Source of the DNA: Squalus acanthias
Taxonomy: Eukaryota
Assembly (NCBI GenBank): GCA_030390025.1
Contig: CM059431.1
Span: 103,790,001-103,854,000 of the forward strand
DNA: 64,000 nucleotides
Reading direction: 5' to 3'
The notes under the pieces were generated by a model. The model did not search any database, was not told the DNA's origin, and saw only the letters and a program-made list of their open reading frames with translations. This document shows, one piece after another, positions 1,806 through 48,099 of this stretch. Numbering within the stretch: position 1 is the stretch's first letter; every line of letters starts with the position of its first letter. Made by a program: the position numbers and the translations under genes.

Positions 1806-2958
1806 ACATCATTTTCTTTTTAACTCTACTGCTAATCATTAAGACACTCTTTAGCTAGATGTTCGAGTTAGAGTTTAACACAGAGAGAACGCATGTCCAT
1901 ATTCTCCATATTCATTTTTCATTGTAAAAACAAGTTAAGGTAATGCGTTTATAATAATTAAATTGCAACCTGTCATTTCTGTCAGCCAGCCAGCCAGCAC
2001 TGTGCCACGTAAATGACTCACTCCTATTGATCAGGTGACATATCAAGATAGATTCGACGGTTGAGACTTTAGTTGCACAGTGAGAACTTTAGCTTTTCAA
2101 TGGGGAGTCAGGGATTTTATTTGCTCCATCTTGCATCCATTGCCAGTTTTCGCTTTGGTATGAAAACATATTTCCCTACAGTTCAGCTTGGCAGACATGG
2201 CCTCATTTTTTAAATTTACTAATTGTTTAATGTTTAAATCATTCTGTGTATTGTTGGAACGACTTATCCCAACCAGATGAAATGCGGGAACAGATTCTGG
2301 CTTTGTGTCTGTCCAATGCCCGTCAGATTCCCATTCAAGTCCCTTGCACTTCATCAGCTAGGAAGTAAGGAAGAAGAGACAGAGGCAGTGTTTTACTCCA
2401 ACATATACAGCAGTGTTTCTTATAGTAAAATACTCAATATGAACCATACTGCAAATATCATCATAAAACCATTCTGCAAGATCATTGTACTTTTCGCGAT
2501 GGCTGTGACTACATTTCAACATGGCTTTTGATTACTTTTCCCATTTACACAGAGCCTCGCATATTTGTATTGATTGATGTGACAAGAAAACAATAATAAA
2601 TTGTATATTTATGCAGGAAAACTGCATGTAAGAGGACAATTGAAAGGAGTTGACAATAAAAAGTGACAGTTAAGCAGCAAGCTGGATTATTGCCAAGCTA
2701 CAGCAAGGTCTCTCTGGAACACCTTTAACTCTCAGTTTCTCTCGTTAATGGGAAACAAAACATCATATTTCTTTTCTAGATTTCTATTTTCTCTTGCTTA
2801 CTGTTTGCACCAACTAAAGTCAACGCAGGGCAGTTGAAAACTCTCCTACTTCAAGCTCCCAGGGTCAGCACCAGGCACTCCCACGTTAGGTATCTCAAAT
2901 CCAAATACAGAGTAAAGCTCCTCTAGTCTCCCTGAACAAGCGATCTGATAGGAACATA

Positions 2959-3126
2959 TGTGAGAAGTCGCACAACACCAGGTTATAGTCCAACAGCTTT
3001 ATTTGAAATCACAAGCTTTCGGAGCGGCTGCTCCTTCGTTTCAAATAAAGCTGTTGGACTATAACCTGGTGTTGTGCGACTTCTCACATTTGTCCACCCC
3101 AGTCCAACACCAGCATCTCCACATCA
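2959..3126 (+). mobile_element. Fold-back Penelope-derived mini-element
   Basis: Inverted arms of GAGAAGTCGCACAACACCAGGTTATAGTCCAACAG...; 3' tail on right arm; TSD TGATAGGAA(C/T)ATA 2946-2958 / 3127-3139. Confidence 0.85.
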
Positions 3127-3129
3127 TGA

Positions 3130-4390
3130 TAGGAATATAGGAACAGGAGTAGGCCATTCAGCCCCTTGAGCCTGTTCAATGGCTGATCTGTATCCTAACT
3201 CCATCCACCTGCCTTGGCTCCATATCTTTTTATATATCCTTGGCTCGCAAAAATTTGTCGATCTCAGCATTAAAATTATTAATTGAGCTAGCGTCTACTG
3301 CTTTTTCCGAGAGAGAGTTCCACACTTCTTCCACCCTTTGCGTGAAGAAGTGTTTCCTAACTTCTCTCCTGGCTCTGATTTTACAATTATGTCCAAGACT
3401 CTACCCCACCAGTGGAAAAAGTTTCTCTCTATCTACCCTGTCGATTCCTTTCAAAATCCTAAACGCCTCAATCAAATCACCCCTTAACCTTCTATATTCC
3501 AGGGAATACAAGCCCAGTTGATGTAATCTCTCCTCGCAATCTAACCCTTGGAGCCCTGGTAACATTCTGGTTGAATTTGCGCTGTACTCCCTCCAAGGCC
3601 AATATATCCTTTCTAAGGTGCGGTGCCCAGAGCTGTACACAGTACTCCAGGTGTGGTCTAACCAGGACTTTGTATAGAAACATAGAAGATAGGAGCAGGA
3701 GCAGGCCATTCAGCCCCTCGAGCCTGCTCCGCCATTCAATGAGATCATGGCTGATCATCCAAATTCAGTACCCTGTCCCTGCCTTCTCTCCATATCCCTT
3801 GATCCCTTTAGCTTTAAGAAATATATCCATCTCCTTCTTGAATATATTTAATGAATTGGCCTCTACTGCCTTCTGTGGTAGAGAATTCCACAGGTTCACC
3901 ACTCTCTGGGTGAAGAAATTCCTCCTCATTTCTGTCCTAAATGGCTTACCCCTTATCCTTAGACTGTGACCCCTGGTTCTGGACTCTCCGACCATCGGGA
4001 ACATCCTTCCCGCATCTGGTCTGTCTGGTCCTGTTAGAATTTTATAAGTTTCAATGAGATCACCTCTCATTCTTCTAAACTCCAGCGAGTATAAGCCCAA
4101 TCGACCCAATCTCTCTTCATACGTCATTCCTGCCACCCCAGGTATCAGTCTGGTGAATCTTCGCTGCACTCTCTCCATGGCAAGAACATCCTTCCTCAGA
4201 TAAGGCGACCAAAACTGCACACAATACTCAAGGTGTGGTCTCACCAAGGCCTTGTACAACTGCTGCAGCAAAACTTCCTCCCGTTTATAGGCTAGCCCTC
4301 CAGTTATAAAGGCTAACATTTTTGATTAATTTTTGCACCTGGCTCCTAGATTTTAGTGATCTGTGTACATGGACCCCTAAATCTCTTGGG
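3130..4390 (-). mobile_element. Two nested CR1 LINE 3' fragments (younger copy ~3675-4263)
   Basis: CR1 ORF2 C-terminus ([15 protein letters not shown]...FFTQRVVNLWNSLP) occurs twice; CR1 3' tails at ~3130 and ~3675. Confidence 0.9.
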
Positions 4391-4420
4391 AATTGAATTC
4401 ATTACTGGAAACAATTCAAT

Positions 4421-4525
4421 GGGGTATAAATGTGTCTTAAACAGTTGAGCAAAACAGGTGACATCGAATCGCCAGCCTGTTTGGCGCTCGCCCGTTTTGC
4501 GCTACCGTGCTAGAATTTATACTCC
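4421..4525. mobile_element. 105-bp MITE, Harbinger-type
   Basis: TIRs GGGGTATAAAT / ATTTATACTCC, 3-bp TSD AAT. Confidence 0.6.
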
Positions 4526-4568
4526 AATGACTACACCAGGAATGGCAAGATATGGACCTGAACTGTCA

Positions 4569-4600
4569 AGTCAGCCAGTGGCTCAGTGGGCAGCACTCTC
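4569..4600 (+). mobile_element. 5' head of a DeuSINE split by the Tx1-like LINE
   Basis: GTCAGCCAGTGGCTCAGTGGGCAGCACTCTC matches the SINE head; the SINE resumes at 9502. Confidence 0.85.
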
Positions 4601-4861
4601 TAGGTGGAAGGGGCTAGGAGTGAGCAGGTGCAGCTGGATGCTTGATTATTGCAGGGAGTTGGAGTGAGTTTGTAAAAAGTTGGTGGTGTTTTTTTTGGGT
4701 TTTTCTTTCCGGTTTTAGGGCCTTTTTGGTCCTTAAACAGCAGCCAGATAGCAGGAGAAAGCAACAGCTGCCTGAAAAGTTGGGAAGGAGCATGAGAGGA
4801 GGGACGGGCCGGAGATTAAATGATGGGGGAATTATCAGGCACACTTCCCTTATTCGGAGCC

Positions 4862-7800
4862 ATGATTACATTGGTCTCGATTAATGTGAATGGACTGAGG
4901 GGTAAGAAGAAATTGCAGCAGTTGTTGCAGTGTTTTAAAGGCACTGACCTGTTGTGTTTGCAAGAAACCTTTTGGGATGAGGATATCCTAGAAAGAGTTC
5001 GGAAGGTTTGGAAGGGAGAGGTGTTTGAAAGTTGCGCAAACAATAATCGTAGAGGGGTGGCTGTTTTGGTAAGTCCATCCATAAAAGAGAACGTTGTCTT
5101 GGTGGACAAGAACATTGAGGAGAGATATTTACAGCTAAAGGTAAAAAGGAAGGAATCTAATTGTGATCTTTTTAATATCTATGGTTTTTCACTGAAGTGC
5201 CAGAGGCAGAAAACCCTTGTATAGTGGGGGATTTTAATGTATTTTTATCTCGGATGGACATTTTAGCCCAGATGACCTTTAAGGATGATAACTCCAGAGG
5301 GATGATTGTAAAAATGATGGCAAATTTAAATTTGAGAGACTTATGGAGGGAGTTCTCCAGAAGAGTGGGTGGGTGATGTTTTAAAACAGAGCCGAATAGA
5401 TATTGGCCCAGAATTTCCGATCGGAGGCTTCCTGCGGGCGGATGCCTCCAATTGGGAAAAAATCTATGCAGTTACCTGCTGGCTCCGTAGGTCCCGAGAT
5501 TTCCGATCCTGGGCCTCTCCTGGTGTGCGTGCGCAGAGGCCCAGGTATCCCAGGGGCGCAGGCGGTTCGCGATCATCCCTGGGATCACGTGGGCCATGGG
5601 GAACCAATCAAAGAAGGGAATCCCCCTTCATACTTTTGACAGGTCTCTACGCACAGATCTGTCAAAAGTATGAATGGGGATCACTTAAAAAACACAGTTA
5701 AACATTAAATAATTTTTTTTTAAATCACGTATTTAAAATGAGTTAAAATTACATTAAATTAAATATTTTAAACAAAAATTAAATTTTTTGAAAAAAAAAT
5801 GAACGTTTTTTACGGGGCTAAAAATGAACTTACCTTTTTTAAAAGTATTTTTAAATTATAAATGAGTGGGGAAAAAAAATATTTTTTAATTTTTTTAAAC
5901 TCTTATGCTGGTAAAAGCAGACCTTACGTAGGCTTTTACCGGGCATAAGATTTTTAAAGGTTTTCAGTGGGCGGAGGTTGTGAAGAAAGCGGAACTCTCC
6001 GCCCGCGGAGGCCCATCTCCCGGGCAGGCGGAGGATCTGTCAAGAGGATTCTTCACAGATCGCAAGTGCCGGGTTTTAGTGCAGGCACTTCGCATGCCTG
6101 AAACCCGGAACTTGCAAGGCCCCTACGGGTGCGTACACACCTCGTACGCACCCGTGGGGGTCGGAATACCCGGCCCCTTGTGTTAATGCAGGAAGGGTTA
6201 AGTTCTGAGGTGATGGAGATTTATTGCAAAGAAGTATTTTTTAGTGACCACTCTGCTTTAGTTCTTAGAATTAGGAACAGCAGAGTTAAGATCGGACCAG
6301 GGGTGTGGATTTTAACCAATCAATACCTGAAAGAAATTGCTTATAAAGAATGGATTTTAAATATAATAAAGAATGCTCGGAAGGAACCTTTATTCTTGAA
6401 AGAAAGAAGAGTTTGATGGGACAATTTCAAACATGAGGTAAAAGTTTTTTCGGAACGTTATGGGAAAGAGAGAGCAGCAGCTAACCAGCGTCGAGAAGGG
6501 AATATAAACAGAAGGTTTAGGGATATCTGTAAAGCAGTTGACGGAGGGGATAAGGGAGCAGAGACCCAGTGGGTGGTTTTAAAGGAAGAGTGGGAATCAT
6601 TGCAAGCTGAAAAATGCAAAGGGGCCATTCTCCCGGCAAAGGCTAAAGATGCATTGGAGGGGGAAAGATGCACCAGATACTTTCTAGAGCAAGAGAAGCT
6701 GCGACAGAGATTATCATTCATTGGAGAGTTGAAGGTTGGGGAGAAGATCTTTAATGAAAGTGGGGAGATTTTGGAGGCGGCTAGTAGCTTTTATCAAGAG
6801 TTAGAAACAAAAGAAGACATTTCCAATTTGGCGATGGAGAAGGTTAGTGCATTTATTGAAGAGGGTTTAAAGGCGGATGAGAAAAGCATGTGTGACAAAG
6901 AAGTAGGATTAGCGGAAATAAAATTAGCAATAAGTGGAATGAAGGGGGAGAAAGCCCAGGTCCGATGGACTAAGTGCAGAGTTTAATACAGAATTTTTAG
7001 AGATTTTATGTCCATTGCTCTTAGAGGTTTTTAAGGAGATTAAAATTGAGGGAAGCCTGGCCCATCTATGAGGAGAGGTGTCATAAGCTTAGCTTATAAA
7101 AATAAAGGGGATAGAAGGAATCTAAAGAATTGGAGGCCCATCACATTATTAAATGTGGATTATAAGATCTTGGCGAGGGTTATGGCAAATCGTATGAAGG
7201 AGGTGATGCCACAGATAGTTTTGCTCTCTCAGTCCGATGGAGTCATGGACCGGGACATCACGGACTCTGTGGTCTCAATCCGAGATGCGATAGAGTTCAT
7301 GGAAGAGAGTGGGAGGGAGGCTTATGTGTTAAAGATTGATCAAGAGAAAGCCTTTGATAGGGTCTCATGAGTTTTTATTGATGGTTTTGGAAGCATTTGG
7401 TTTCGGGAAAAATTTAATTGAGTGGATAAGGATTTTTTATTCAAACATATTTAACTGTGTTAAATGTAATGGTTTTTTATCCAAGTATTTTCAGATATAG
7501 AGGTCAGTGAGACAGGGTTGTCCCCTGTCCCCATTGTTGTACACATTGGTAGCAGAACCATTAGGTTACATGAATCGAAAGGAACAAAGCGTAGTCGGGA
7601 TTGCGGTTCCCAGTTCCGGGCTGGTGTCGGTGATACACCAATATGCAGATGACACAACCTTAATGTTGAGAGATGGGGAGTCAGTGAGGAAAGCTATGGA
7701 TGTAGTGGAGGAGTATTGTAGAGCTTCAGGAGCCAGAGTGAATTATAGTAAGTCCCAATGCCTAGTTGCGGGAAGGGGTAGGGGGGAATGGTTGGAGGAA

Positions 7801-9439
7801 AGTCCCTTTAAGGTGGAGGAGGTTTTGGAAGTTCTGGGGGAGCATATGGGGTGCAAGAAAGACAGGGATGAAGTGGATCGATTAAATTGGGAACCGAAGG
7901 TTATGAAAATTAAAAAGATTTTGGGAAGATGGGAAAGAAGGTGGTTGAAAGTGCAAGGAAGCTCTTCTGCTATCTAAACTATGGTACTTATTGACGATGG
8001 AGGATATTCCTGAGTGGGCGGAAAAGTCCATCCTTGAGGCTTGTGTGAGGTTTTTATGGGAAGGGAAACCAGCCTTGGTGGCTTACAATACCATCATTGG
8101 ACGGAGAAATCAGGGAGGTCTTAATTTCCCAGATATTGATTTGAAGAAAAAATCCTTTAGAATCAAATGGGTGAAGAGATTTCTTCAGAAGTCAAATACA
8201 AGTTTTTGGAAGAGTTGTTTCGAGCATTTTTTGAGATGAAGTGGGATAGGAAGGCAGGGGATATTGTATATGGAATACAATAATATGTTTTTGAAATCGA
8301 TTAAACCTCTCCTTAGGCTTTATAAGGGGGTTGTAGAGACTTGGGCCCAATTTTTAAAAGTGTGCAGTGTATGCCCAAGGTTCTTGAGGAATTTTGAGAA
8401 CAGCCCTTATTTTTGAACAAATGGGTCAACATTGAAGGATAGGTATTATTTAATCAAGCTTTTATAAAAGCTGGTATTATATATGTGAAAGATGTATTAT
8501 ATGAGGTAATTCCAGGTTGGTTGCCGGAAGCGGTAGTGAGGGACATGGTGTGGGAGGAGGATCAGGAGGTAGAGGAAAAAGCAATAGGGATCATGTATGA
8601 GAAGATTGTGAGGGCAATGCCACAGGATTGGATGGAAGAAATAAATGCGGAAATCTCCAAAGGAAGTAAAATGCGTCCCGCTTTTCCAAGCTTTCTGCTG
8701 GAGAAAGGGGAGGAGTTGGTCCAATTTGACAACTGTAATACTCGAGATTTCTATGGGGTATTTAGAGAATGGAGATTCAAGACACCTGCTGGTCAGGAGT
8801 TTTGACAGTATCTACCCACAGCTAGACTTCAACAGGATTTGGAAGGGAGTGTGGGCGAATTTTAAATGTCCAGAGTGTATTGAACTGGATTTCAAATTAG
8901 CTCATAACCGGATTTTTACCGTGACGGTCTTGTGTAAGATTGGACGAGTGGAGGGGGCAATTTGCCCAGTGTGTGGGACACGGGATGAGACGCTGTCCCA
9001 TTTACTGGTGTTATGTCCGCAGGTAAAGGATTTTAAGTACTATGTTCGACAGTTGTGTGAGGTTTTTTTGCTGGGTGGGGACCGAAGAGCGAGAATGGGA
9101 ATCCCGTGGGACTCAATTTTGAGATGGGGATTGCAGGAGAGTCTGCCCAAGTCTAGCGGAGTGGCAATTAATTTAATGTTCAGTTTTGCTAGATTCGTGA
9201 TTGTGCAAAGAAGAAATGCTCTGTTTTTAAAGGGGAGGAGAATAAATCTAAATGAGTATTTTAAATATAAGCTAAAAGATCATTATAAGGCTCTGTGGAT
9301 GTTTTATTCAGAAAGGAGTTTAAAGATAGTATTTTATGATCAATTTTTAAAGTACAATAGATTAATATATGTTACGGGAGACAAATTAAACTTCAGGTGG
9401 AGGAATGGCTGTGCAGAGCAGCAGAATGGATTTGTATGA
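4862..9439 (+). pseudogene. Tx1-like ORF2 (APE endonuclease - reverse transcriptase - Cys/His domain), disrupted
   Basis: SINVNGLR, LCLQET, SRIDI, SDHSAL, NWRPITLLNVDYKILA, DQEKAFDRV, RQGCPLSPLLY, QYADD, CPVC..ETLSHLLVLC; several stops/frameshifts and a MITE insertion. Confidence 0.92.
5405..6176 (-). mobile_element. ~770-bp MITE with AT-rich core, nested in Tx1 ORF2
   Basis: Imperfect TIRs GGCCCAGAATTTCCGA / TCGGAATACCCGGCCC; removing it plus 3 bp restores SRIDI-VLMQEG; related to the 23459 family in opposite orientation. Confidence 0.85.
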
Positions 9440-9501
9440 TACAATGGAATGATCACGATGTTGTAAATGTTTTTAATGTTCAATAAATAATATATTTAAA
9501 A

Positions 9502-9949
9502 AGTGGGTAGCACCCTCACCTTTGAGTCAGAAGGTTGTGGGTTCAAGCCCCACTCCAGAGACTTGAGCACAAAATCTAAGCTGAAACTCCCATTGTAGTA
9601 GCGAGGGAGTGCTGCACTGTCGGAGGTGCCGTCTTTCATATGAGATGTTAATCCGAGGCCCGTCTGCCCTCTGAAGTGAACGCAAAAGATCCCATGGCAC
9701 TATTTTGCAGAAGAGCAGGGGGAGTTATCCCCGGTGTCCTGGCCAATATTTATACCTCAACCAACATCACTAAAACAGATTATCTGGTCATTTATCACAT
9801 TTCTGTTTGTGGGAGCTTGCTGTGCGCAAATTGGCTGCTGCGTTTCCTACATTACAACAGTGACTACACTCCAAAAAGTACTTAATTAGCTGTAAAGCGC
9901 TTTGGGATGTCCTGAGGTGAAAGGCGCTATATAAATGCAAGTCTTTTTT
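9502..9949 (+). mobile_element. DeuSINE (SacSINE1-like), remainder after Tx1 insertion
   Basis: B-box-like GGTTCAAGCCC, Deu core, L2-like tail. Confidence 0.9.
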
Positions 9950-10216
9950 ACGCCAAGCATCAATTTCATGAACTTTTCCCTTTCTCCAGCTGTCCTTAGT
10001 CCATAATAAGATTGCACTGTACACTTCCCAGCCCTCCCTTGTCCCTTACGGCCTCCTACAGTAGGAACTTGTACTGTACAACCCTCCGCCAACTCCTTCC
10101 TTGTAAAGCTCCTGTTTCAATCTTCCCTGAACCTATGGATACCACCGTGATATATGTGGTTTCAGTATACGTTATGAGTCAATGGCAACTACTCAATAAA
10201 TGCCACGATTCTTTTA

Positions 10217-10427
10217 TGAGAAGTCGCACAACACCAGGTTATAGTCCAACAGTTTTATTTGAAATCACAAGCTTTTGGAGCGCTGCTCCTTCGTCACCTT
10301 CACTTCACCTGACGAAGGAGCAGCGCTCCGAAAGCTTGTGATTTCAAATAAAACTGTTGGACTATAACCTGGTGTTGTGCGACTTCTCACATTTGTCCAC
10401 CCCAGTCCAACACCGGCATCTCCACAT
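10217..10427 (+). mobile_element. Fold-back Penelope-derived mini-element
   Basis: ~80-bp inverted arms plus 3' tail; perfect 13-bp TSD CACGATTCTTTTA 10204-10216 / 10428-10440. Confidence 0.9.
10305..10341 (+). ncRNA. Minimal type I hammerhead ribozyme motif
   Basis: TCAC-CTGACGA-A-GGAGC(AGC)GCTCC-GAAA-GCT-T-GTGA: CUGANGA/GAAA core, helix II, palindromic AGCT helix III, helix I TCAC/GTGA. Confidence 0.75.
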
Positions 10428-10764
10428 CACGATTCTTTTAGGATAAGAAGGCAGTGTAACAAGAGGGAATGGCTGAATGCAAGAGGCCGACTGTCTAAGT
10501 TGCACTTTTGAGCACAGGGCTCCCCATATACAGGGATGGGACTTGGAATGGGAAGGAGGAGACATGACTCCCAGCTCAAGCTTCTGCAACACTTATCCTT
10601 CCTTTACTCTGCATCCTATCCAGTCACGTACTCCGTGATGCCAGAGCTTGCACTGAACATCGGGTTCATGTTAGTGCTGTGGCGAAGGCTGCATGACACC
10701 AAGTTGTAATGGGGATCTCCAGGACCCAGCTTTTAAAAGAAGGATGCCTTCTAAGTATCATAGA

Positions 10765-11112
10765 ATCATATAGACTCATACAGCATGGAAGGAGGCGATT
10801 CGGACCATCGTGCCTGTGCCGGCTCTTTGAAAGAGCTCTCCAATTAGTCCCACTCCCCCCTGCGCTTTTCCCAATAACTGCAACTATTTCCTTTTCAAGT
10901 ATTTATCCAGTTCCCTTTTGAAAGATACGATTGAATTTGCTTCCACCGCCCTTTAAGGCAGCGCATTCCAGATCACAACAACTCGCTGCGAAAAACAAAA
11001 TTCTCCTCATCTCCCCCTCTGGTTCTTTTACCAATTACTTTAAATCTGTGTCCTCTGATTACTGACCCTCCTGCCAGTGGAAATGGTTTCTCCTTATTTA
11101 CTCTGTCAAAGC
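10765..11112 (-). mobile_element. CR1 LINE 3' fragment
   Basis: ATCATAGA tail repeats and CR1 ORF2 C-terminal similarity. Confidence 0.8.
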
Positions 11113-11384
11113 CCCACATACGAGTATGACAGACTGTTGGGGGTCATCGGGGAATGGGCCTAGCAGTTTTTTATCACACGGTTACTTCCACAACCTGCAC
11201 ATCTGGCCTTTTGCTGCATGGGACAGAAACTCTGCCATCTACCTTGGAACCTGTGGCAAGTCTCGGAATATCTGCAGCACAGCCCAATGCAAAGACCCCC
11301 AATGCCAGCATTTACATTGCTCATGGGTGTTCAGACTGCTGCTGTACAGGCTTTTTGGGCTGCAATTTTTGGGCACGTTAGCTC

Positions 11385-15430: not shown

Positions 15431-15588
15431 AACCCCAGATCCCCATTGTTCACCACATCCCCATCATTCCATCCCTGTCGCAGGCCATATCACAGCGCAA
15501 AGCTGAAATGAGAGACACCACAAAAGAATCCAAACTGAATTAATACATTTATCAATAATCAGTGAACACATATTTACAACAATATTAA

Positions 15589-30069: not shown

Positions 30070-31067
30070 GGACGTGTGGTTGATAGTGAGGAAGAAAAGC
30101 TGCAGACTGCAGGAAGATATCAATGGACTGGTCAGGTGGGCAGAAAGGTGGCAAATGGAATTCAATCCGGAGAAGTGCGAGGTAATGCATTTGGGGAGGG
30201 CTAACAAGGCAAGGGAATACACAATAAATGGTAGGACACTGAGAAGTGTAGAGGAACAGAGGGACCTTGGAGTGCTTGTCCACAGATCCCTGAAGGTAGC
30301 AGGACAGGTAGATAAGGTGGTTAAGAAGGCATACGGGATACATTACTTTATTAGCCAAGGCATAGAATATAAGTCCCAGGGAAGGAGCGATAGCTCCGAA
30401 AGCTTGTGATTTCAAATAAAACTGTTGGACTATAACCTGGTGTTGTGCGACCTCTCAATAGAATATAAGAGCAGGGAGGTTATGCTTGAACTGTTTAAAA
30501 CACTAGTTAGGCCACAGCTAGAATACTGCGTACAGTTCTGGTCACCACATTACAGGAAAGGTTTAATTGCACGAGAGAGGGTACAGAGACGATTTACGAG
30601 GATGTTGCCAGGACTGGAGAATTTTAGCTATGAGGAAAGATTGGATAGGCTGGGGTGTTTTCTTTGGAACAGAGGAGGCCGAAGGGAGGCTTGATTGAGG
30701 TGTATAAAATTATGAGGGGCCGAGATAGAGTGGATAGGAAGGACCTATTTCCCTTAGCAGAGAGGTCAATAACCAGGGGGCATAGATTTAAAGTAATTGG
30801 TAGAAGGAATAGAGGGGAGCCGAGGAGAACTTTTTTCACCCAGAGGGTGGTGGGGGTCTGGAACTCACTGCCTGAAAGGGTGGTAGAGGCAGAAACCCTC
30901 ATCACATTTAAAAAGTACTTGGATATGCACTTGAAGTGCCGTAACCTGCAGGGCTACGGACCAAGAGCTGGAAAGTGGGATTAGGCTGGGATAGCTCTTT
31001 TTCGGCCAGCACAGACACGATGGGCCGAATTGCCTCCTTCTGTGCTGAAAATGTCTATAATTCTATG
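30070..31067 (+). mobile_element. CR1 3' fragment (~1 kb)
   Basis: WAERWQMEFNPEKCEVMHLG...LEYCVQFWSP...; ATTCTATG tail. Confidence 0.92.
30374..30457 (+). mobile_element. Single-arm Penelope-derived mini-insertion inside CR1
   Basis: Arm sequence with truncated hammerhead; 12-bp TSD ATAGAATATAAG 30362-30373 / 30458-30469. Confidence 0.88.
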
Positions 31068-35150: not shown

Positions 35151-35224
35151 TTTCTTATTATGCTCAGATTAAAGGATCACCCCAGTGTCCAGGATGATAT
35201 TATTCCCTTTAATTTCCACAATAT

Positions 35225-38050: not shown

Positions 38051-38064
38051 TAGAGATTGCTGAG

Positions 38065-39567
38065 AAAAGAAAGACTTGAATTTCTATAGCGCCTTTCACC
38101 AACTCAGGACGTCCCAAAGCGCTTTCCAGCCAATGAAGTCCTTTTGACGTGTATTCATTGTTGTAATGTAGGAAACGCGGCAGCCAATTTGCGCACAGCA
38201 AGCTCCCACAAACAGCAATGTGATAATGACCAGATATCCTGTCAGGCGTTTGGTTTCCTCATCCTTACAAGGGTTCTTTGACTCTGGGTTTTACAGGAAC
38301 AAAATGTTAGACGACACAAAGGTTTAGGTTCAACCCAAAACTGTTAGTTTATTAAAACCAACAAAACACGGACAAAAACCCTGTTGAGATTTGGCTGAAA
38401 CTTACAATCACCCATCCGGCCGGTCGTTACCGTTGTGGATTGTCGGCCTGGATCGGAGATGACCTGTCCCCGTCCTCCTTTATCTGACTGCAGCTGCCTA
38501 CACAGCGCAAACCCCTTGTAGAGTCAACTGAATACTTACAATCACCCGTCCGGCTGGTCGTGGCTGACGTCGATTGCAGGCTGGGAGCTGGAGATGACCG
38601 TCTTCCCTTCCTTCTTACACCTGGCAGTTCCTGTAGTCAGAGCTAGCTTCCCAGAGAGAGAGCTTCCAAGCGAGAGCTTCCTAGCGAGAGCTTCCGAGAG
38701 AGCTTCTGAGTGAAAAGCAGAGAGAACTGTGGGTGTGGTTCCTTCTTATACTTCTTTTAGTCACCTGGCCTCATGCTGGGCTTTCCCCAACCAGTTTCGG
38801 TTGTCGGTTTGCTGAACTGTCCGACATTCACACCTCGTCAACCTGTAATCCAATCACCGGAGGTGTACAGAGTTGTGAGATCGAAGATAACTCCTTATTT
38901 CCTCTCCCGCTTTCTGTAACGCATATTCAATGTGATTTCTATTACTGTTGATGGGCGGTTGGCTGATTGTCTGCTCGGGACTTGTGTATCTTCCATTCAT
39001 GTCAGGAAGTCGATCGTGACCCCCATTGTTTCAGTTAAACTCAGAGCGTTGTCCAGATGTTAATTTTTCCCATCGAAACCAATCATGATTCAAGGCCTCA
39101 TAGTTCAATGTCAATGTCCTTTTCAGAGTTAATCATGAGCCAAAGCTTTTCATTGTCCAGTATCCATGTGTTCTCCAAGAACTGCAGACTTTGATGACTG
39201 GCACCTTTCCTGTGCCTTGAAGTTTAACCGTTTCATGCCCTTATGCTGGGGCCAAACTGTTCCAAGAAACTTACAATCCTTTTTTTTAGTGATGTTGATT
39301 TGAGAGATAAATATTGGCCCCAGGACACCACGGAGAACTCCTCTGCTCTTCTTCGAAATAGTGCCGTGGGATCTTTTACGTCCAATTGAGAGGGCAGACG
39401 ATTAACGTCTTGTCTGAAAGATGGCACCTCCGGCAGTACAGCACTCCCTCAGCACTGCACTGGGAGTGTCAGGTATAGATTTTATGCTCAAGTCTCTGAA
39501 GTGGGACTTGGACCTACAGCCTTCTGATTTAGAGGTGAGAGTGCGACCCACTGAGCCACGGCTGACA
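38065..39567 (-). mobile_element. DeuSINE split by a solo LTR (38065-38239 + 39276-39567)
   Basis: SINE sequence continuous across the LTR. Confidence 0.88.
38240..39275 (-). mobile_element. Solo LTR, 1036 bp
   Basis: TG...CA ends, 4-bp TSD ATCC; minus-strand TATAA (38746-38750) and AATAAA (38348-38353). Confidence 0.85.
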
Positions 39568-40232
39568 TAGGACACATGAGCAAGGCACTGGAACACAATT
39601 GAACAGTTCACTACTTACCTGTTTAAAGAGTCTACAGGCCAAGCACTGGTTGAAGTGCTGGTAAGCACAGCGCAATCCAATTAACTGTTTGAAAGCTCCA
39701 GTAGTAATGGGTGCCTGGTCTTTGGGAGGTGTCAGCTTCCCAGGCAGTTATCCCCCCCTCAACAATGACACCGAACTGGTTAAAAAATCACAGCGAGATG
39801 CAGGCCAAACTGAAATTTTGCCCAAGAGATTTCGTTATTCAATCATCGAATTCTGTCAAGCGAACCATGTGAGCTCATTTCTTCCTGGTTCTTTTAATTA
39901 CCCTCAACTGAAAATTAGAAAGTCTTTCTATGGTACTCGTTAACCAGCAGCAGCATGCTTTTCAAAATAAATTTCAGAACTTCCCTTGCCTTTTTATTTA
40001 GAAAGCAAAAACCTGGAGTATCTCCTGCTTATCCTTTCATTGTCATGGTCACCTCCTTGGTCAGTGCTATTAGAAAACATGATTGCTCCAGTGATGGTCT
40101 CCAGTTACTTCAGGTAAGCTGCTCGTCCAAAACCCCTTTGATTCAGGGGAACATATAAACTTATCCTGGAACCACAAAAAGCTACTGACTTCATTTACAG
40201 TTAGCGCACAGATGGCAGATCTGTAGCAGGAC

Positions 40233-40687
40233 AAGAAAGAAAGACTTGCGTTTATACAGCGCCTTTCACGACCACCAGACGTCCCAAAGCGTTTACAGCC
40301 AATGAAGTACTTTTGAAGTGTGGTCGCTGTTGTAATGTAGGAAACGCGGCAACCAATTTGTGCACAGCAAGCTCCCACAAACAGTACATGTGATAATGAC
40401 CTAATAATCTATTTTTTAGTGATGTTGATTGAGGGATAAATATTGGCCAGGACACCGGGGAGAACTCCCCTGCTCTTTGAAATAGTGAATCCACCTGAGA
40501 GAGCAGACGGGGCCTCGGTTTAATGTCTCATTGGAAAGACGGCACCTCCGACAGTGCAGCACTCCCTCAGCACTGCACTGGAGTGTCATCCTAGATTTTT
40601 ATGCTCAAGTCTCTGGAGTGGGACTGTGAACCCACAACCTATCTGACTCAGAGGCGAGCATGCTGCCCACTGAGCCACAGCTGACAC
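40233..40687 (-). mobile_element. DeuSINE, full length
   Basis: Head, core, tail. Confidence 0.9.
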
Positions 40688-40694
40688 TAACACT

Positions 40695-41080
40695 GACAAT
40701 GGCGGTGGATTTACTCCCTTGGCAGCTTGCTGGAGAAAGGATTTCCAATCAAGTACCTTCAAACTCCCATTTGATGGAAGAACTTCCCAAGGAGTGGAAG
40801 ATCCTTTTGGGAGTACTTTACAAGCTACCATCTGCTGATGATCCATCCTACTATCAAACACCCTTGACGGAATTGAATTCTCCATCAGAAAATGCACATT
40901 CTGCTTCTGTTGGCTTCAAAGGTGAGAATGAGGATTGGCTAAGAAGAAAAAGAAAGCTCAGACCACAAGGACCTTGCATTGATGAATGCTCTCACTCAGT
41001 TGATTTTCTTTTGAACTAAAGGTAATACCTACTTGGATCTAGCATTGACTGACTACCCTGATCACCTGAAAGTAATCTGT
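40695..41080 (+). pseudogene. Old LINE APE-endonuclease fragment
   Basis: ILLGVLYKLPSADD...VGFKGENEDWL resembles LLITTYCPPSADE...VGDFNFHHQEWL of the 58-61 kb LINE. Confidence 0.5.
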
Positions 41081-41384
41081 ATTGATGCCAAGTCGCGTGC
41101 CAAGTGACAACTTGGGGGGTAATTGTAACCTAACTCGCCAGGCGGGTAACCCACAGGATCAGGTGGAACGCCAGTTTTACACCCCCCGCCCGATATTATT
41201 CCCCGTTGACTTCAATGCTCATAATCATGTGCACAGCAAGATCCCACAAACAGCAATGTGATAATGACTAGGATAATGCTTTTTAGTGATGTTGGTTGAG
41301 GGATAAATATTTGCCCCAGGACACCGGGGGAGAACTCCCCTGCTCTTCTTCAAAATAGTGCCGTGAGACCTTTAATGTCCACCT

Positions 41385-41962
41385 GACTATTCCAACGCAC
41401 TCCTGGCTGGCCGCCCACATTCGACCCTACGAAAACTTGAGGTCATCCAAAACTCGGCTGCCCGTGTCCTAACTCGCACCGAGTCCCGTTCGCCCATCAC
41501 CCCTGTGCTGACTGACCTACATTGGCTCCCGGTTAAGCAGCGACTCGACTTCAAAATTCTCATCCTTGTTTTCAAATCCCTCCATAGCCTCCTCGCCCCT
41601 CCCTATCTCTGTAATCTCCTCCAGCCCCACAAACCCTTCCGAGATATCTGCGCTCCTCTAATTCTGGCCTCTTGAGCATCCCTGATTATAATCGCTCTAC
41701 CATTGGTGGCCGTGCCTTCTGTTCCTAGGCCCAAAGCTCTGGAATTCCCTCCCTAAACCTCTCCGCCTCGCTACCTCTCTTTCCTCCTTTAAGATGCTCC
41801 TTAAAAACCTACCTCTTTGACCAAGCTTTTGGTCACCTGCCCTAATTTATCCTTATGTGGCTCGGTGTCAAATTTTTTGTCTTAAAATACTCCTGTGCAG
41901 TGCCTTGGGACGTTTTACTACGTTAAAGGCACTATATAAATACAAGTTGTTGTTGTTGTTGT
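41385..41962 (+). mobile_element. L2 3' fragment (preceded by a DeuSINE fragment 41225-41387)
   Basis: L2 ORF2 end and (TTG)n tail. Confidence 0.9.
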
Positions 41963-42297
41963 GAGGGCAGGTAGACACCGGTGGGCAGTACGGTCCCTAC
42001 AATTCAGTGCCCAGTTAATGAGTTCAAAGCAGCACCGCTTACAGTTCGCATGTGCTCCCTCAAGAGTACAGCAGAATTAGATTGTGTAACTATTCGCCTT
42101 ATTTATTATACTCCATTTACCATAATGATGTAGCAGCTGTGGCCAGTTACCCTTCTGAAAAGTGATGGCATTATGAAAGTTCTCGTACAGTCCTGTTCCT
42201 GCACCCTTTCCCTTCCCCAGGCATCTCACTTCTGACAGGTTTACCGTAGTGTCATGGATTGTAATGCTGAGCCTAAACTACTAAAACTAAACACCTG

Positions 42298-43310
42298 GGC
42301 CTGGAGTTTCCGCTCGGTTGCGCCGTTTTTTTTTTCAGCGCAATTCGCCCGGAATCAGCCAAACCAGCGCGAAAGATCGAGGGATTTCAAGCGCAGATTG
42401 CGTCCAGCGCAAATCGTGGTTCTGAGATCTTCTGTGCGAGTTTTAAAAAAATATCGCGCTGGAAGCTGTAGTAATCAAAACTGTACCAGGTTACCACTCT
42501 TAAATATATCAGGGAATATTTTTTAAAGCAGAACGTTTTTTTTTTAAATGACGTTCTAAAACGCTGCCCGATTGCGCTGGTTCGTGGCAGATTTTACGTT
42601 CGGTGATATGCAAATAAGTTTGAGCGGAAACTTGAGAAATAAAAACACTTCTCAAAACGGGTGCAATTTTGGGCGCAGTTCGCACCCGAATCGCCGACTG
42701 AACCCAAAGCGGAAATGTTGCTTTTTTACACAAGCGCAGTGAGTTTAATTCTGCTCGTCTTTCTCTCTCTCCTACTGAAGGCACGGCCGCCAATGGTGGG
42801 ACGAAGGAAATCGGGGTTGAGCGAGAGAAACATAGAAACATAGAAGATAGGAGCAGGAGTAGGCCATTCGGCCCCTCGAGCCTGCTCCGCCATTCAATGA
42901 GATCATGGCTGATCATCCAAATTCAGTACCCTGTCCCTGCCTTTTCCCCATATCCCTTGATCCCTTTAGCCTTAAGAAATATATCTAACTCCTTCTTGAA
43001 TATATTTAATGAGAGGCCAGAATTGGAGGAGCGCAGAGGTCTCGGAGGGTTGTGGGGCTGGAGGAGGTTGCAGAGATAGGGAGGAGAGGGGGCGAGGAGG
43101 CCATGGAGGGGATTTGAAAACAAGGATGAGAATTTTAAAATGGAGGCGTTGCCAGACCTGGCGCCAATGTAGGTCAGCGAGCACAGGAGGTAATGGGTGA
43201 ACGTGACTTGGTGCGAGTTTTGAATGAGCTTAAGTGGGTGCAAGGTAAGGATGTCGGCAAGGAGAGCATTGGAATAGTTGAGTTTAGAGATAATAAAGGC
43301 ATGGATATGT
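42298..43310. mobile_element. Nested cluster: truncated MITE (42298-42750), L2 (42775-43310, -) with CR1 tail inserted (42826-43010, -)
   Basis: Similarity to other copies in the window. Confidence 0.75.
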
Positions 43311-43539
43311 AAGAAGGCCTCAAATCTCGAAGGTCCTTTGGCAAATGTGTATATGTAGCTGTGGCTCTGGTGTTTGACAACAGCCAAATGCACCAGATAC
43401 AGTAAGGATTAAAATTAACTCATTTAGTCGGACTCCAGTAGGCTAGCTGTTCAAACATCCATTACCCCTCTTCAAGGGTCACACTATTTGGTCGGCGCTC
43501 CTCCATTGTGGATTAGTAATGATCTCCATAAATAATCAA

Positions 43540-43730
43540 CATAACTAAAAAAAAACAGATTATCAGATCATTATCACATTGCTGTTTCTGGGAGCTTGCT
43601 GTGCGCAAATTGGCTGCCGCGTTTCCCACATTACAACAGTGACTCCACTTCCAAAAGTACTTCATTGGCTGTAAAATGCTTTGAGATCATAGTGGTCGTG
43701 AAAGGCGCTATATAAATGTAAGTCTTTTTT
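43540..43730 (+). mobile_element. DeuSINE 3' fragment
   Basis: Matches SINE 3' half. Confidence 0.85.
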
Positions 43731-44871
43731 TCCATATTTTGCTTTGTGCCATCAATCACCAGATCCACTCTGATGCTTTGAAGAAATTCGGGAAGGCCGA
43801 CATCAATGCAGATCAGAAGCGGAATGTATCTGGCAGCTTGAACTTGCGTTTTATGCCTTCAACTGAAATGGATTTATCAACTCCCTTGAGACACTGAAAG
43901 TGAGAATGTGTTATGCACACAAATTAACAATTCGGCCTATATTAACTTGCCAATGTCTCTGCATTAGCAACAGCAACACAAAGAGGCATTCTTTGCCACT
44001 GCTATGTTTCCTCATGTTTTGGTCAACTATACATAACCACCCATGCATCAGCTGAGAGTGTTGTGTGTCTATTGTAACGCTGGGTGGTATTATGGTAAAC
44101 CTGTTAGCAGTGAAATGCCTGGGGGAAGGGAAGGGAAGGGTGCTGGGACAAGGCTGTACAGGAACTTTCATAATGCCATCATCTGTAATCACTTTTCAGA
44201 AGGGTAATTGGGCACAATTGCCGCATTATCATAGGAAATGTAGTATAATAAATAAGGATAATAGTTATGCAATCTTATTCTGCTGTATTCTGGAGGGAAC
44301 ACATGCGGACTGTAAGCGTGTGCAGCTGCAAAATCTTTAACTGGGCCCAGAATACTGAAGAAGAAGAGGGTTGCAGGGAGAAAAAAACAGTTTTTCCAAG
44401 GATTTGACCTCATTATTTCCTAGATAAAAGTTCTTCCAGAAATGACAGAAAATAAAAAGCGAGAGCTTTTCTAACCGTGCAGTGTCAGTGTTTGGTAGAA
44501 TTTAGCTTTAGGATTTGGGATTTTCAAACTAAGCACAGCGTCTTCAGCCAGCAGGTCAGTCACCACACCTCAGAGTGGAAGAGTGCAAACCAATTATTTT
44601 CAATCCTGCAGGAAAAATAAATGGGGGCTGCTATCGGAACTTAACGACTGATAGAAGGAAAGTGATAAGGAAGGTCAATAAAGACCCCAAGTTTTACTTA
44701 AATGTTGCACCAAGATTTTATTTTATCTCATTATTTTGAGATCCGTTGTGGAATTTTCTTGCCATTTTTGCTTCAGTTGGGGCATTTTGGAAATGGTTTT
44801 TGTATTTGACCATTTGTTCAGCAAACTACACCTTTGATAGTTTGCTTTTAGTATTTTAGAACGTGTGTGAG

Positions 44872-45588
44872 AAGCATTTCTATAGCGCCTTTCACGACCA
44901 CTGGGTGTCTCAAAGCGCTTTACAGCCAATGAAGTACTTTTGAAGTGTAGTCACTGTTGTAATGTGGGAAACGCGGCAGCCAACTTGCGCACAGCAAGCT
45001 CCCACAAACAGCAATGTGATAATGACCAGATCATCTGTTTTAGTGATAAATATTGGCCCCAGGACACCGGGGATAACTCCCCTGCTCTTCTTCGAAATAG
45101 TGCCTGGGATCTTTTACGTCCACCTGAGAGAGCAGACGGGGCCTCGGTTTAACATCTCATCCGAAAGACGGCAAGATGCAAGGAAGTCCCATTCCCCACC
45201 ACTGCTACTGCTGAAAGATGTTTCTCTTTAGCTGACTAGGCTGGTAGACTTGGGATTGTCTGAGTTCTGAATCAATCGGTGGGAAGTGGAACAGGCGGGC
45301 TTGTTTAACCAGATGCTTCTTGCTGTGGGGTTAGCTTGCAAAGAGAACTCCCCTGCTCTTCTTCAAAATAGTGCCAGTGGGATCTTTTATGTCCACCTGA
45401 GAGAGCAGACAGGGCCTCGGTTTAACGTCTCATCCGAAAGACAGCACCTCTGACGGTACAGCACTCCCTCAGTACTGCACTGGGAGTGTCAGCCTAGATT
45501 ATGTTCTCAAGTCTCTGGAGTTGGACTTGAACTCACGACCTTCTGACTCAGAGACGAGAGTGCTACCAACTGAGCCACGGCTGACACC
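44872..45588 (-). mobile_element. Two overlapping-coverage DeuSINE pieces (44872-45172, 45343-45588)
   Basis: Both include the ACTCCCCTGCTCTTCTTC core segment. Confidence 0.8.
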
Positions 45589-45606
45589 ATTGCATACAAA
45601 TCAAAA

Positions 45607-45700
45607 GTGAGAAGTCGCACAACACCAGGTTATAGTCCAATAGTTTTATTTGAAATCACAAGCTTTCGAAGCTGCTGCTCCTTCGTCAGGTGAAGTGAAG
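45607..45700 (-). mobile_element. Single-arm Penelope-derived mini-element with intact hammerhead core (45656-45693, -)
   Basis: Reverse complement reads TCAC-CTGACGA-A-GGAGCAGCAGCTTC-GAAAGCTT-GTGA; TSD unclear. Confidence 0.8.
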
Positions 45701-45819
45701 GAATACGAATCGGCAAATCAAATCAAAGGTTAATACAAGTGACACTGTGCCTTGACCTTTATCTGTTAATTTCATGAATTCTTTCACACAATGGCAGAGG
45801 GCTGCTAACTTCTCAATAA

Positions 45820-46045
45820 TGCGGAGATGCCGGTGTTGGACTGGGGTGGACAAAATTGAGAGGTCGCACAACACCAGGTTATAGTCCAACAGTTTTATTT
45901 GAAATCACAAGCTTTCGGAGCTATCGATTGCTCCTTCCTCAGGTGAAGAAGACACTTCACCTGAGGAAGGAGCAATCGATAGCGCCGAAAGCTTGTGATT
46001 TCAAATAAAACTGTTGGACTATAACCTGGTGTTGTGCGACCTCTC
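45820..46045 (-). mobile_element. Fold-back Penelope-derived mini-element with back-to-back hammerhead motifs (45905-45946 -, 45957-45998 +)
   Basis: ~95-bp inverted arms; perfect 13-bp TSD AACTTCTCAATAA 45807-45819 / 46046-46058. Confidence 0.9.
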
Positions 46046-46524
46046 AACTTCTCAATAAGCCCAAGATTTTTCTCCATTTTTCTTTGTTACTTCAGTATAG
46101 TTAATAAAATTAACAGAATTTCTTGACAAAGCTAAGCTCAGGGAAATCTAATTAGGTGTGGACCAGCCCCTAGGATTTGCATTAAGTAAAGCCTAGAAAT
46201 TGCTGATTGCGTGGTATGTGGAGGTCACCGTGGGTTGCTACATGTTTTTGGTAGAATTTACTCCTTCTGGTTTACATACACTTTTGCTGTGATTGCATGA
46301 TTGCGCGATAAAGCCCATACTACAACCAGAATCATTATCAAAATCCTCCATGGTCTCTCCACCATTGTCCAACTTCATGGGACCACTCTTGCATGGATCT
46401 ATGAATCTCCACCAGAAGCTTCTCCACTTAGCCTTCCATAGTCACCTCTGTCGAGCAACCTCCTTTCTCCTCTGGTTCACAACAACACGTTTCGAGTAAG
46501 CACGAGACTTCGTAGTGGAGTGTA

Positions 46525-47195
46525 CAACAACAACAGCAACAACAACTTGTATTTATATAGCGCCTTTAATGTAGTAAAACGTCCCAAGGCGCTTCACAGG
46601 AGTATTAAAAGACAAAAAATTTGACACCAAGCCACATAAGGAGAAATTAGGGCAGGTGACCAAAAGCTTGGTCAAAGAGGTCGGTTTTAAGGAGCGTCTT
46701 AAAGGAGGAAAGAGAGGTAGCGAGGCGGAGAGGTTTAGGCAGGGTATTCCAGAGCTTAGGGCCTAGGCAACAAAAGGTAGGCCACCAATGGCTGAGCGAT
46801 TATAATCAGCGATGCTCAAGAGGGCAGAATTAGAGGAGGGCAGATATCTCGGGGGGGTTGTGGGGCTGAAGGAGATTACAGAGAGAGGGAGGGGTGAGGC
46901 CATGGAAGGATTTGAAAACAAGGATGAGAATTTTGAAATCGAGGCGTTGCTTAACTGGGAGCCAATGTAGGTTAGCAAGCACTGGGGTGATGGGCGAACG
47001 GGACTTGGCGCGAGTTAGGACACGGGCAGCCGAGTTTTGGATGACCTTAAGTTTATGTAGGGTAGAATGTGGGAGGCCAGCCAGGAGAGCGTTGGAATAG
47101 TCAAGTCTGGAGGTAACAAAGGCATGGATGAGGGTTTCAGCAGCGGATGAGCTGAGGCAAGGGCGGAGACGGGCGATGTTACAGAGGTGGAAATA
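46525..47195 (-). mobile_element. L2 3' fragment
   Basis: (CAA)n tail; L2 similarity. Confidence 0.9.
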
Positions 47196-47573
47196 TACGG
47201 AACAGACTTTATTGGTACACAGAAAGGTGATTGGCCTTGAACTGTATACAGAGAGTGACTTTACCGGTTTCTGTATCTATCGAGCACACTCTGAGGTACT
47301 GTTGAAAACCATGATCCTGTAGACACCATATTTTAACTACATCAAAGGAAAATGTCAAAATGACGTATCTATTTCCCAAATCCTCTGAAACCAGACTATT
47401 GATGAAAACAGTTTGCAATTGTTTACCTCAGAACCATTCCCTTAAACAAAACTTCCGTTACCTGCTGTTATCTTTAGCAAAAGGACTCGCTGCCCCTGTT
47501 TTATTACTAACACTTATGTCCTTACACAAGCACTTTACACCTCAGAAGACAAGCTGTGCTTTCTCCTTTTACG

Positions 47574-47994
47574 TGGAGATGCCGGCGTTGGACTGGGGTG
47601 GACAAAAATGAGAAGTCGCACAACACCAGGTTATAGTCCAACAGATTTATTTAATTATTTAATTTATGTCACGATACAGAACGTGACTTGACATCATGGC
47701 CGGTCTTCCCAGGTGTTTTTTTTTTTAAAAAGACTAACACAAGAACACAAATTGACAGGATATGCAGCCAGCAGGTGGTTTGACACGTTGGACCCCCCGG
47801 GACACATCTCATTGTCTTGGCTGTGCTCTTTGTTGTAGGGAAAAATGTGAATAGATTTTGTCTGTGTTTAAATTGTGAATTCTGGGAGATTCTCTCACTG
47901 CTAACTTACCTGACGAAGGAGCGAACTGCTTCGAAAGCTTGTAAAATTAAATAAATCTGTTGGACTATAACCTGGTGTTGTGCGACTTCTCATT
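47574..47994 (-). mobile_element. Fold-back Penelope-derived element with ~250-bp internal segment and hammerhead (47906-47944, +)
   Basis: Inverted arms; 14-bp TSD TTTCTCCTTTTACG 47560-47573 / 47995-48008. Confidence 0.9.
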
Positions 47995-48099
47995 TTTCTC
48001 CTTTTACGACACCTCAATGTCATCCTGTTTATATGGGAAAGCCTGTTGCTTTAAGATACAAAAGTTCGACCGTTAAACTTTGGACTCCCCAAGATGTGC

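Follow-up and report, generated by a model that had tools for sequence, protein, structure and literature searches.

The window analysed here, a 64,000-nt stretch of Squalus acanthias contig CM059431.1, contains six TSD-flanked insertions of one non-coding module, four of them fold-backs. They come from a Penelope-like element (PLE), as extreme 5'-truncated insertion units likely produced by dual priming. The arm of the module corresponds to the 3'-terminal ~90 nt of the PLE pseudo-LTR (pLTR), and its tail to the 5' leader, which spans the interval between the pLTR end and the ATG of the RT-encoding ORF. The finding is real but ordinary, as the "inverted copy plus tail" pattern was previously described for PLEs. 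According to the available excerpts of Craig et al. (2021; PMC8557442), PLE insertion units include a 5'-truncated copy in inverted orientation, together with a tail of 30-40 bp that is often present at a single end. In vitro, both target strands are nicked and extended, and the tail corresponds to the interval separating two RT start sites (Frangieh et al. 2024, PMC11167929).

The 29-mer of the arm, TGTTGGACTATAACCTGGTGTTGTGCGAC, was found 10 times in the window (<=1 mismatch), with zero matches expected from 100 shuffles, and the 34-nt tail occurs four times. A BLAST search with a full genomic copy matched the identical six places and detected no piece of the ORF in the window. These matches confirm the original prediction of six insertions of one module, four of them hairpins with a tail on one arm. 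The fold-backs are insertions 1, 2, 5 and 6 (4/6), with arm-to-arm identities of 48/48, 79/80, 91/92 and 44/44, respectively, and the single-arm copies are insertions 3 and 4. In each fold-back one arm ends in ..GCGAC(T/C)TCTCA and the other continues through a tail of ~40 nt, which is restricted to that arm in 4/4 cases. The TSDs of insertions 1 to 6 measure 12 (one mismatch), 13, 12, 9, 12 and 14 bp. The features are located as follows:

2947..2958, no strand: left TSD of insertion 1, gataggaacata, pairing with 3128-3139 with one mismatch
2960..3039, minus: tailless inverted arm of insertion 1, outer end GCGACTTCTCAC, inner end at about x=+5
3040..3087, plus: forward arm of insertion 1, inner end at about x=+37, terminating in ..CTTCTCAC
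3088..3127, plus: tail of insertion 1, the 5' leader up to ..CATCAT
3128..3139, no strand: right TSD of insertion 1
10204..10216, no strand: left TSD of insertion 2, cacgattctttta, same as 10428-10440
10217..10296, minus: tailless inverted arm of insertion 2
10297..10390, plus: forward arm of insertion 2
10305-10341, plus: complete minimal hammerhead motif within the forward arm of insertion 2, predicted to cut after 10337
10391..10427, plus: tail of insertion 2
10428..10440, no strand: right TSD of insertion 2
30362..30373, no strand: left TSD of insertion 3, atagaatataag, followed by six unassigned bases (30374-30379)
30380..30457, plus: lone tailless forward arm of insertion 3, beginning inside helix II, without CUGANGA
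30458..30469, no strand: right TSD of insertion 3
45597-45605 and 45719-45727: 9-bp TSD of insertion 4, caaatcaaa
45607..45715, minus: lone tailless inverted arm of insertion 4, extending ~29 nt upstream of CUGANGA
45808..45819, no strand: left TSD of insertion 5, acttctcaataa, same as 46047-46058
45820..45855, minus: inverted tail of insertion 5
45856..45948, minus: inverted arm of insertion 5, inner end at x=-6
45949-45953: 5-nt filler between the arms of insertion 5
45954..46046, plus: tailless forward arm of insertion 5, beginning at ACTTCACC (x=-7)
46047..46058, no strand: right TSD of insertion 5
47560..47573, no strand: left TSD of insertion 6, tttctccttttacg, same as 47995-48008
47574..47656, minus: inverted tail (47574-47608) and short inverted arm (47609-47656) of insertion 6
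47663..47994, plus: tailless forward arm of insertion 6, a whole sister-subfamily pLTR from the ORF end to ..CTTCTCATT
47995..48008, no strand: right TSD of insertion 6

Two details of the earlier description were revised. Insertion 4 ends at 45715, not at 45700, and its upstream part matches L017. In insertion 6, the inner portion of 333 nt (47663-47995) is the whole sister-subfamily pLTR rather than foreign DNA, the forward arm being 97.6% identical to L114 over 333 nt.

The parent element was identified from full copies elsewhere in the 3.7-Gb genome, which encode a protein of ~845 aa of the RT plus GIY-YIG type. Walking upstream from the arm, the ORF end is reached first and then the RT ORF, which matches Pfam RVT_1 (E=1.4e-9, 38.4 bits, cut-off 29.6) and contains a YIDD motif. 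The genome-wide protein search returned at least 100 matches, with frames of up to ~846 aa among the matches listed. In L075, L076 and L078, which are full copies, the arm and tail lie immediately before the ATG and the arm is found again after the ORF, as pseudo-LTRs, and L075 has an adjoining inverted 5'-truncated copy. The element's own ORF gave no Pfam match to PF01541 (GIY-YIG), and no PDB relative of it was found. This domain is precomputed in 13/67 homologs, 3/4 of the scanned homologs exceed the cut-off, and their GIY-YIG region aligns with ..VVYLIRC..WYIGET..R..H..E..GLN of the element, which by homology is thus predicted to have a C-terminal GIY-YIG endonuclease. The proposed origin of the module from a PLE with an RT/GIY-YIG-type ORF was borne out by the full copies, the RVT_1 match and this homology.

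The terminal 29-mer has 91,440 exact matches in 3.713 Gb, as anticipated for a high-copy family; the hammerhead 47-mer has 12,403 and the ORF-end 45-mer 1,917. Hairpins had been suggested about every 10 kb here; the local density, six insertions in 45 kb, exceeds the genome-wide average, in which exact arms occur once per 40.6 kb.

Outer ends were analysed in a sample of 97 arms, the first ones along contig 1, of which 39 end at -7..+2, 19 at +3..+13, 38 at +32..+49 and one runs into the ORF. The outer ends are discrete, falling at two positions, ..CUUCUCA and ..CAUCA(UG), which are separated by 40 nt. From 33 -/+ neighbour pairs, 28 fold-back units were obtained after dropping five (four non-abutting pairs and one full-length unit). 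All 28 have exactly one tail, each outer site being used once per unit. The inverted termini plus tail of the original prediction are seen in these units as in the 4/4 window fold-backs. TSDs are mostly 12-13 bp, and an exact TSD run of 12-15 bp was found in 24/28. Inverted termini with flanking duplications would also be produced by fold-back or MITE-type DNA transposons whose terminal inverted repeats happen to derive from the PLE. We give this practically no chance, given that the termini are asymmetric, with the tail on one side only (28/28), arm lengths vary between copies, single-arm copies with TSDs exist (insertions 3 and 4), and full-length units with the RT ORF share the ends and TSDs of the hairpins.

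In contrast to the sharply discrete outer ends, the inner ends of the 97 arms form a broad truncation series, with arm lengths from ~35 nt to >650 nt and one hot spot (described below). The original prediction had opposed a discrete short unit to a continuous Penelope truncation series, and the inner ends largely follow the latter. A discrete non-autonomous, retrozyme-like family, hammerhead-processed, possibly circular and mobilised in trans, was accordingly rejected and is very improbable: the arms are the pLTR end of the autonomous element itself, without unit length. The very high copy number, the type-I minimal hammerhead motif with covarying helices and, in the available part of PMC11722881, the description of metazoan retrozymes as LINE- or PLE-mobilised would fit such a family. 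However, direct tandem units are absent, with no same-strand neighbour within 1 kb for any of the 97 arms, and the catalytic box is missing from insertions 1 and 3. The junction of a test hairpin occurs only three times, all within 0.55 Mb, and therefore hairpins do not multiply as units. The mini-copies are non-coding dead ends.

The hammerhead is a predicted PLE-type minimal type-I motif carried along as part of the pLTR. Its presence in the module was foreseen, but it is complete in only 4/6 window insertions, insertions 1 and 3 stopping short of CUGANGA. Across 24 lineage variants C3, G5, A6, G8, A9 and GAAA are invariant, in type-I order, and U4 is kept in 22/24; in one lineage, which has long copies, CUGA is replaced by CCGA. 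In helices I and II, 97.2% of 216 cells are paired, a score reached by 0/500 shuffles, and pair 10-50 is CG in 13 variants, UA in 10 and UG in one, a covariation that involves few independent events. Aligned with the list of Cervera and De la Pena (2014, PMC4209133), the motif shows the extra base between 9 and 10.1, G10.1-C11.1 and the palindromic 15.2-16.2. No Rfam hammerhead match was found at the gathering score, nor at E<=10 on 10150-10500 or 45550-48050, a miss that is expected because the motif has no helix III. Sub-threshold Rfam matches, on their part, suggest miRNA-like hairpins. The predicted cleavage site has just 2/97 inner ends within 4 nt of it, and the inner ends of the sampled arms gave no sign that the motif sets the unit ends.

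Under dual priming, the RT/endonuclease of the element would nick both target strands ~12-13 bp apart and prime one cDNA per strand. The two outer sites would correspond to two positions at the pLTR-ORF junction of the RNA where RT starts internally, and from there both cDNAs would extend toward the RNA 5' end before joining head to head. We infer the start sites and the cDNA joining from Frangieh et al. 2024 together with the present data, and the dual priming from the lizard element studied in vitro. Alternatively, with the same parent and RT start sites, a single strand could be primed, its cDNA snapping back or switching template to copy itself into the second arm, and the far end being resolved at the inner start site to leave one tail. 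The 28/28 one-tail rule would be natural with a single primed start, the arms of one hairpin are nearly identical, and several near-symmetric pairs are centred on palindromes of the element (-27/-27 at GAGAATTCTC, -36/-36 at ATATAT and +8/+8 in helix II). This alternative is nevertheless improbable, as the Anolis PLE protein nicks and extends both strands in vitro (PMC11167929), many arms are very unequal (e.g. -54/-355 and -187/-423), and fillers of 5-13 nt separate arms that both end near x=-7 (insertion 5 of the window; C1:2777741). The tail should also be copied, unless something halts copying exactly at the inner site. A point against the dual-primed reading is that, as read by eye, the longer arm does not track the tail-bearing one, the tailless arm being longer in ~12/18 resolvable pairs.

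Returning to dual priming, the template would be the element's own mRNA, whose 5' end would lie just 89 nt before the first start site, which is the likely reason why many cDNAs stop within ~90 nt. The inner-end hot spot holds 18/97 ends at x=-4..-9, or 3 per nt compared with 0.2-1.2 per nt nearby, and a TATA-like box conserved in all subfamilies is located 30-34 nt upstream of it. Nested exact counts of 18,189 (x=+5), 12,403 (x=-3), 9,242 (x=-7) and 6,268 (x=-11) show gradual loss with no single sharp step, part of it being CpG decay and variants. The base preceding ACTTCACC is G in 1,497 cases, T in 405 and A in 154, where the element itself encodes C, and G precedes 8/10 ends at x=-7 versus 30/105 other ends. 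The G+ACTT form is present in only 1,497 of the 12,403 47-mer arms, and 6,268 extend upstream. At 30 G-loci that were checked, the G is often readable as templated by the partner arm, and therefore the cap reading rests on the G excess. The inner-end peak and the untemplated G likely reflect run-off at the capped 5' terminus of the RNA, the predicted RNA start. There, one cap-templated C would be added to the cDNA, which would use that base to jump onto its sister cDNA. We tentatively propose that the mini-hairpins are run-off copies of the capped mRNA leader, in which an enzyme dimer would use two UCA sites, one per target strand, that lie 40 nt from each other immediately ahead of the start codon, with 89 nt to the cap, a cap-templated C and a single-base jump.

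The family resembles canonical EN+ PLEs (Penelope/Poseidon, Neptune and Nematis), as described in the available parts of PMC8557442 and PMC11167929, in its pLTRs around one RT-EN ORF, heavy 5' truncation, adjoining inverted 5'-truncated copy, 30-40 bp tail at one end and pLTR hammerhead motif, although the tiny copies are unusually numerous here. Its pair of neighbouring, discrete 3' end points is consistent with two internal RT start sites like those of the Anolis PLE, which lie 111-118 nt inside the ORF (PMC11167929), whereas here they lie before it, at the pLTR end and start codon. The hammerhead agrees with minimal type-I PLE hammerheads (PMC4209133) in its CUGANGA and GAAA boxes, 4-bp helix I, G10.1-C11.1, a single unpaired base separating 9 from 10.1, and a palindromic AGCU where helix III would be, suggestive of dimer use; helix II has 5 bp, compared with 7-8 bp in Schistosoma families. 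Opposite-strand pairs of hammerhead motifs with a spacing of 100-700 bp had already been noted in Schistosoma (PMC4209133). Metazoan retrozymes, in the part of PMC11722881 at hand, are likewise non-coding, hammerhead-bearing and reliant on the RT of another element, but form direct-tandem units of 170-400 nt that circularise, unlike these inverted stubs of an autonomous element without unit length.

A further parallel is the family's likeness to LINE-1 in the proposed second-strand priming with an inverted 5' part and in the extra 5' G. In LINE-1 twin priming, another cDNA is started from the second target strand, giving an inverted 5' part, and the untemplated G at the 5' end of full-length L1 is ascribed to the cap. 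LINE-1 begins at the poly(A) end and its inversions join different RNA parts without near-palindromes, whereas the element described here would begin at internal sites and yields near-palindromes.

The chief use of these results is in annotation: the ~91,000 arms should be masked as LINE/Penelope fragments, and should not be called miRNA-like hairpins or new ribozyme-bearing elements. The near-perfect hairpins could putatively seed dsRNA or genome instability. To our knowledge, what is known of the PLE integration mechanism comes from a single in vitro study. Because the family is both young and huge, its junctions, one-tail rule and extra G are a natural data set on PLE integration. If the proposed mechanism is true, thousands of genomic junctions would map vertebrate PLE transcription start at single-base resolution, and would be the first in vivo record of dual internal initiation, so far seen only in vitro.

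The arm 29-mer, taken from the last ~90 nt of the element's pseudo-LTR (pLTR), matched ten times in the window and the 34-mer of the tail beyond it four times, with no match for either in shuffled sequences. Together these matches resolve into six insertions, as in the original prediction. Four of them are fold-backs, with two inverted arms head to head (arm identities 48/48, 79/80, 91/92 and 44/44), and in each of these one arm stops at ..GCGAC(T/C)TCTCA while the partner arm continues through the ~40-nt tail. Target-site duplications (TSDs) of 12, 13, 12, 9, 12 and 14 bp flank insertions 1 to 6, respectively. Two details had to be amended: the right limit of insertion 4 is at 45715, and the interior of insertion 6, taken to be foreign, is an entire pLTR belonging to a sister subfamily (identity 97.6% over 333 nt). 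Within the window, a complete copy of the parent element taken from the genome matched at the six insertions and nowhere else, and the protein of the element had no match at all.

Exact-pattern searches of the 3.71-Gb genome gave 91,440 copies of the terminal arm 29-mer and 12,403 of a 47-mer across the hammerhead core. Longer copies extend upstream of the arm into the end of an ORF, where a 45-mer has 1,917 genome copies; upstream of this end lies a reverse transcriptase (RT) ORF (Pfam RVT_1, E=1.4e-9), for which a protein search gave at least 100 matches, with frames of up to ~846 aa among the matches listed. The full copies at loci L075, L076 and L078 have the arm with its tail immediately 5' of the ORF; the tail terminates at the ORF's ATG (..CACATCATGG, the M of MATIDTTNCRLK), and the arm is found again ~420 nt past the stop codon. 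This layout identifies the arm as the end of the pLTR and the tail as the 5' leader. The module had been read as either retrozyme-like or a strongly truncated Penelope-like element (PLE); the RT ORF beyond the arm and the pLTR/leader layout bear out the PLE reading and refute the retrozyme-like one.

The last ~90 nt and the tail are common to at least four subfamilies, which diverge upstream. The element's own C-terminal domain gave no match to Pfam GIY-YIG; it can be aligned with the PF01541 region of homologs, 13 of 67 of which carry PF01541, the cut-off being passed by three of the four homologs scanned. A PDB sequence search with the protein found no relative. Earlier reports place PLEs in every vertebrate lineage, including sharks (PMC4350176, PMC8455134). 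Pieces of the PLE ORF with 75-79% identity also occur in public shark gene models P0057, P0062 and P0064 (named PPP1R12A-like, follistatin-related 5 and one uncharacterised protein), probably as transposon exons taken up during gene annotation. A 4.2-kb inverted pair at locus L031 was rejected as a full element, being satellite-rich duplicated DNA; in L031, segments 5743-6330, 8458-8835 and 9444-9986 (20.12 Mb on genome contig 1, C1) are a tandem satellite with long open frames on both strands, adjoining duplicated PLE hairpins.

Insertion ends were mapped in an arbitrary sample, the 97 arms fetched of the first 100 listed on contig 1. Outer ends fell into a ..CTCA class (39 at -7..+2 and 19 at +3..+13) and a ..CATCA(TG) class (38 at +32..+49), and one arm continues into the ORF; the 19 ends at +3..+13 probably represent the same ..CTCA site, blurred by microhomology with AT-rich targets. 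Leaving out four non-abutting pairs and one full-length unit, the 33 -/+ neighbour pairs yielded 28 fold-back units, all 28 with exactly one tail, where about half would be expected with independent ends. This one-tail rule is a modest new detail. Exact TSD matches of 12-15 bp flank 24 of the 28 units. Inner ends, the truncated junction-side ends, were mapped by alignment to long ORF-linked references, which replaced an all-against-all extension confounded by other hairpins and shared LINE flanks. Measured from the GCGAC close to the outer end of the arm, their distances run from 34 to over 650 nt (over 500 nt in 25/97). Multiplication of the hairpins as units was rejected, since a test junction common to three loci has just three copies in the genome, which lie no more than 0.55 Mb apart.

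Two sites in a CR1/L2-like LINE, ATAGAATAYAAG and ..TTCATAAATAGA.., were each struck by independent insertions that differ in their inner ends, and this repeated use suggests that target choice is strongly biased, over and above AT-richness. The loci are:

Window 30362-30469, insertion at a CR1/L2-like LINE site
C1:889390, 906657 and 1467846 (loci L107, L109, L118), insertions at these sites
L008, L014 and L029; C1:1932308, 2899848 and 3049965, further loci at these sites

The hammerhead motif is real. Rfam gave no hammerhead model match in the window; 24 lineage variants conserve the CUGANGA and GAAA boxes, an additional base following A9, G10.1-C11.1 and the AGCU palindrome. In helices I and II, 97.2% of cells are paired, and the observed score was reached in 0 of 500 shuffles. 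One helix pair is divided between subfamilies (CG 13, UA 10), and the covariation probably reflects only a few evolutionary events. One lineage with long, ORF-linked copies has CCGA in place of the CUGA box and a compensatory change in helix II (GGAGU..ACUCC); an intact catalytic core thus seems dispensable for spread. Its copies are:

L071:3324-3377, CCGA copy
L126, CCGA copy
L109:3527-3580, CCGA copy
L111:1333-1386, CCGA copy

Cleavage by the hammerhead was rejected as what defines the ends, because just 2/97 inner ends come as close as 4 nt to the predicted cut, and the motif has no role in shaping these copies. With x=0 set at the C of CUGANGA, the 7 nt around the predicted cut (x=+29), x=+28..+34, contain 8 of 145 inner ends, slightly more densely than the preceding stretch; these could be a minor group of cleaved templates, or chance. 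Separately, the hairpins at window 45880-46023 and 10213-10398 give sub-threshold Rfam matches to several models of miRNA precursors from plants and animals. A miRNA identity was rejected, as all scores are far below gathering (e.g. 81.7 bits vs 249) and reflect hairpin shape only, an artefact that could mislead miRNA finders.

Inner ends concentrate elsewhere: 18/97 lie at x=-4..-9, or 3 per nt, compared with 0.2-1.2 per nt nearby, and most often at the A of ACTTCACC (x=-7). Exact counts of nested patterns drop from 18,189 (x=+5) to 12,403 (x=-3), 9,242 (x=-7) and 6,268 (x=-11), a broad loss zone with no single step. The base before ACTT is C in the element; where it differs, it is G in 1,497 copies, A in 154 and T in 405, the T count including a templated variant. 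Among 145 distinct arms, G precedes 8/10 ends at x=-7 vs 30/105 other ends, and at 30 loci with this G the partner arm usually starts immediately after an element C. A run-off cDNA would gain one extra C that could pair with a sister cDNA, and a partner arm starting after an element C is what such pairing would produce. All subfamilies have a TATA-like box 30-34 nt upstream of x=-7. The inner-end peak, the G excess and this box point to a likely capped transcription start at x=-7. PMC8754658 and PMC6885630 describe a cap effect on template switching for other RTs, and a literature search on the subject returned no paper linking it to PLEs. Parts of the element are present as contigs in 24 sequencing runs, for most of which the RNA status is a guess.

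Craig et al. 2021 (PMC8557442) describe PLE insertions with an inverted 5'-truncated copy and a 30-40 bp tail, in many cases at a single end. In work on an Anolis PLE, the protein nicked and then extended each of the two target strands, its reverse transcription began at two adjacent internal RNA sites with the tail as the stretch between them, and hammerhead mutants inserted normally (Frangieh et al. 2024, PMC11167929). In the present element, base pairing is possible between GUUGGACU in the arm and AGUCCAAC in the tail (window 10355-10413, spanning arm end and tail); the stem so formed would put the inner RT start site (..CUUCUCA) in its loop and may correspond to the AC-rich stem-loop in Anolis. 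RNA folds of arm plus tail reproduced helices I and II and the stem around the inner start site, with energies no better than shuffles (z = -0.85 and -1.11). Minimal PLE hammerheads were defined by Cervera and De la Pena 2014 (PMC4209133), who had recorded pairs of the motif on opposite strands, separated by 100-700 bp, and took them for probable truncated PLEs. The kind of element is known already, the G signature at inner ends being a modest new detail, and everything seen in the original prediction is known PLE architecture in miniature.
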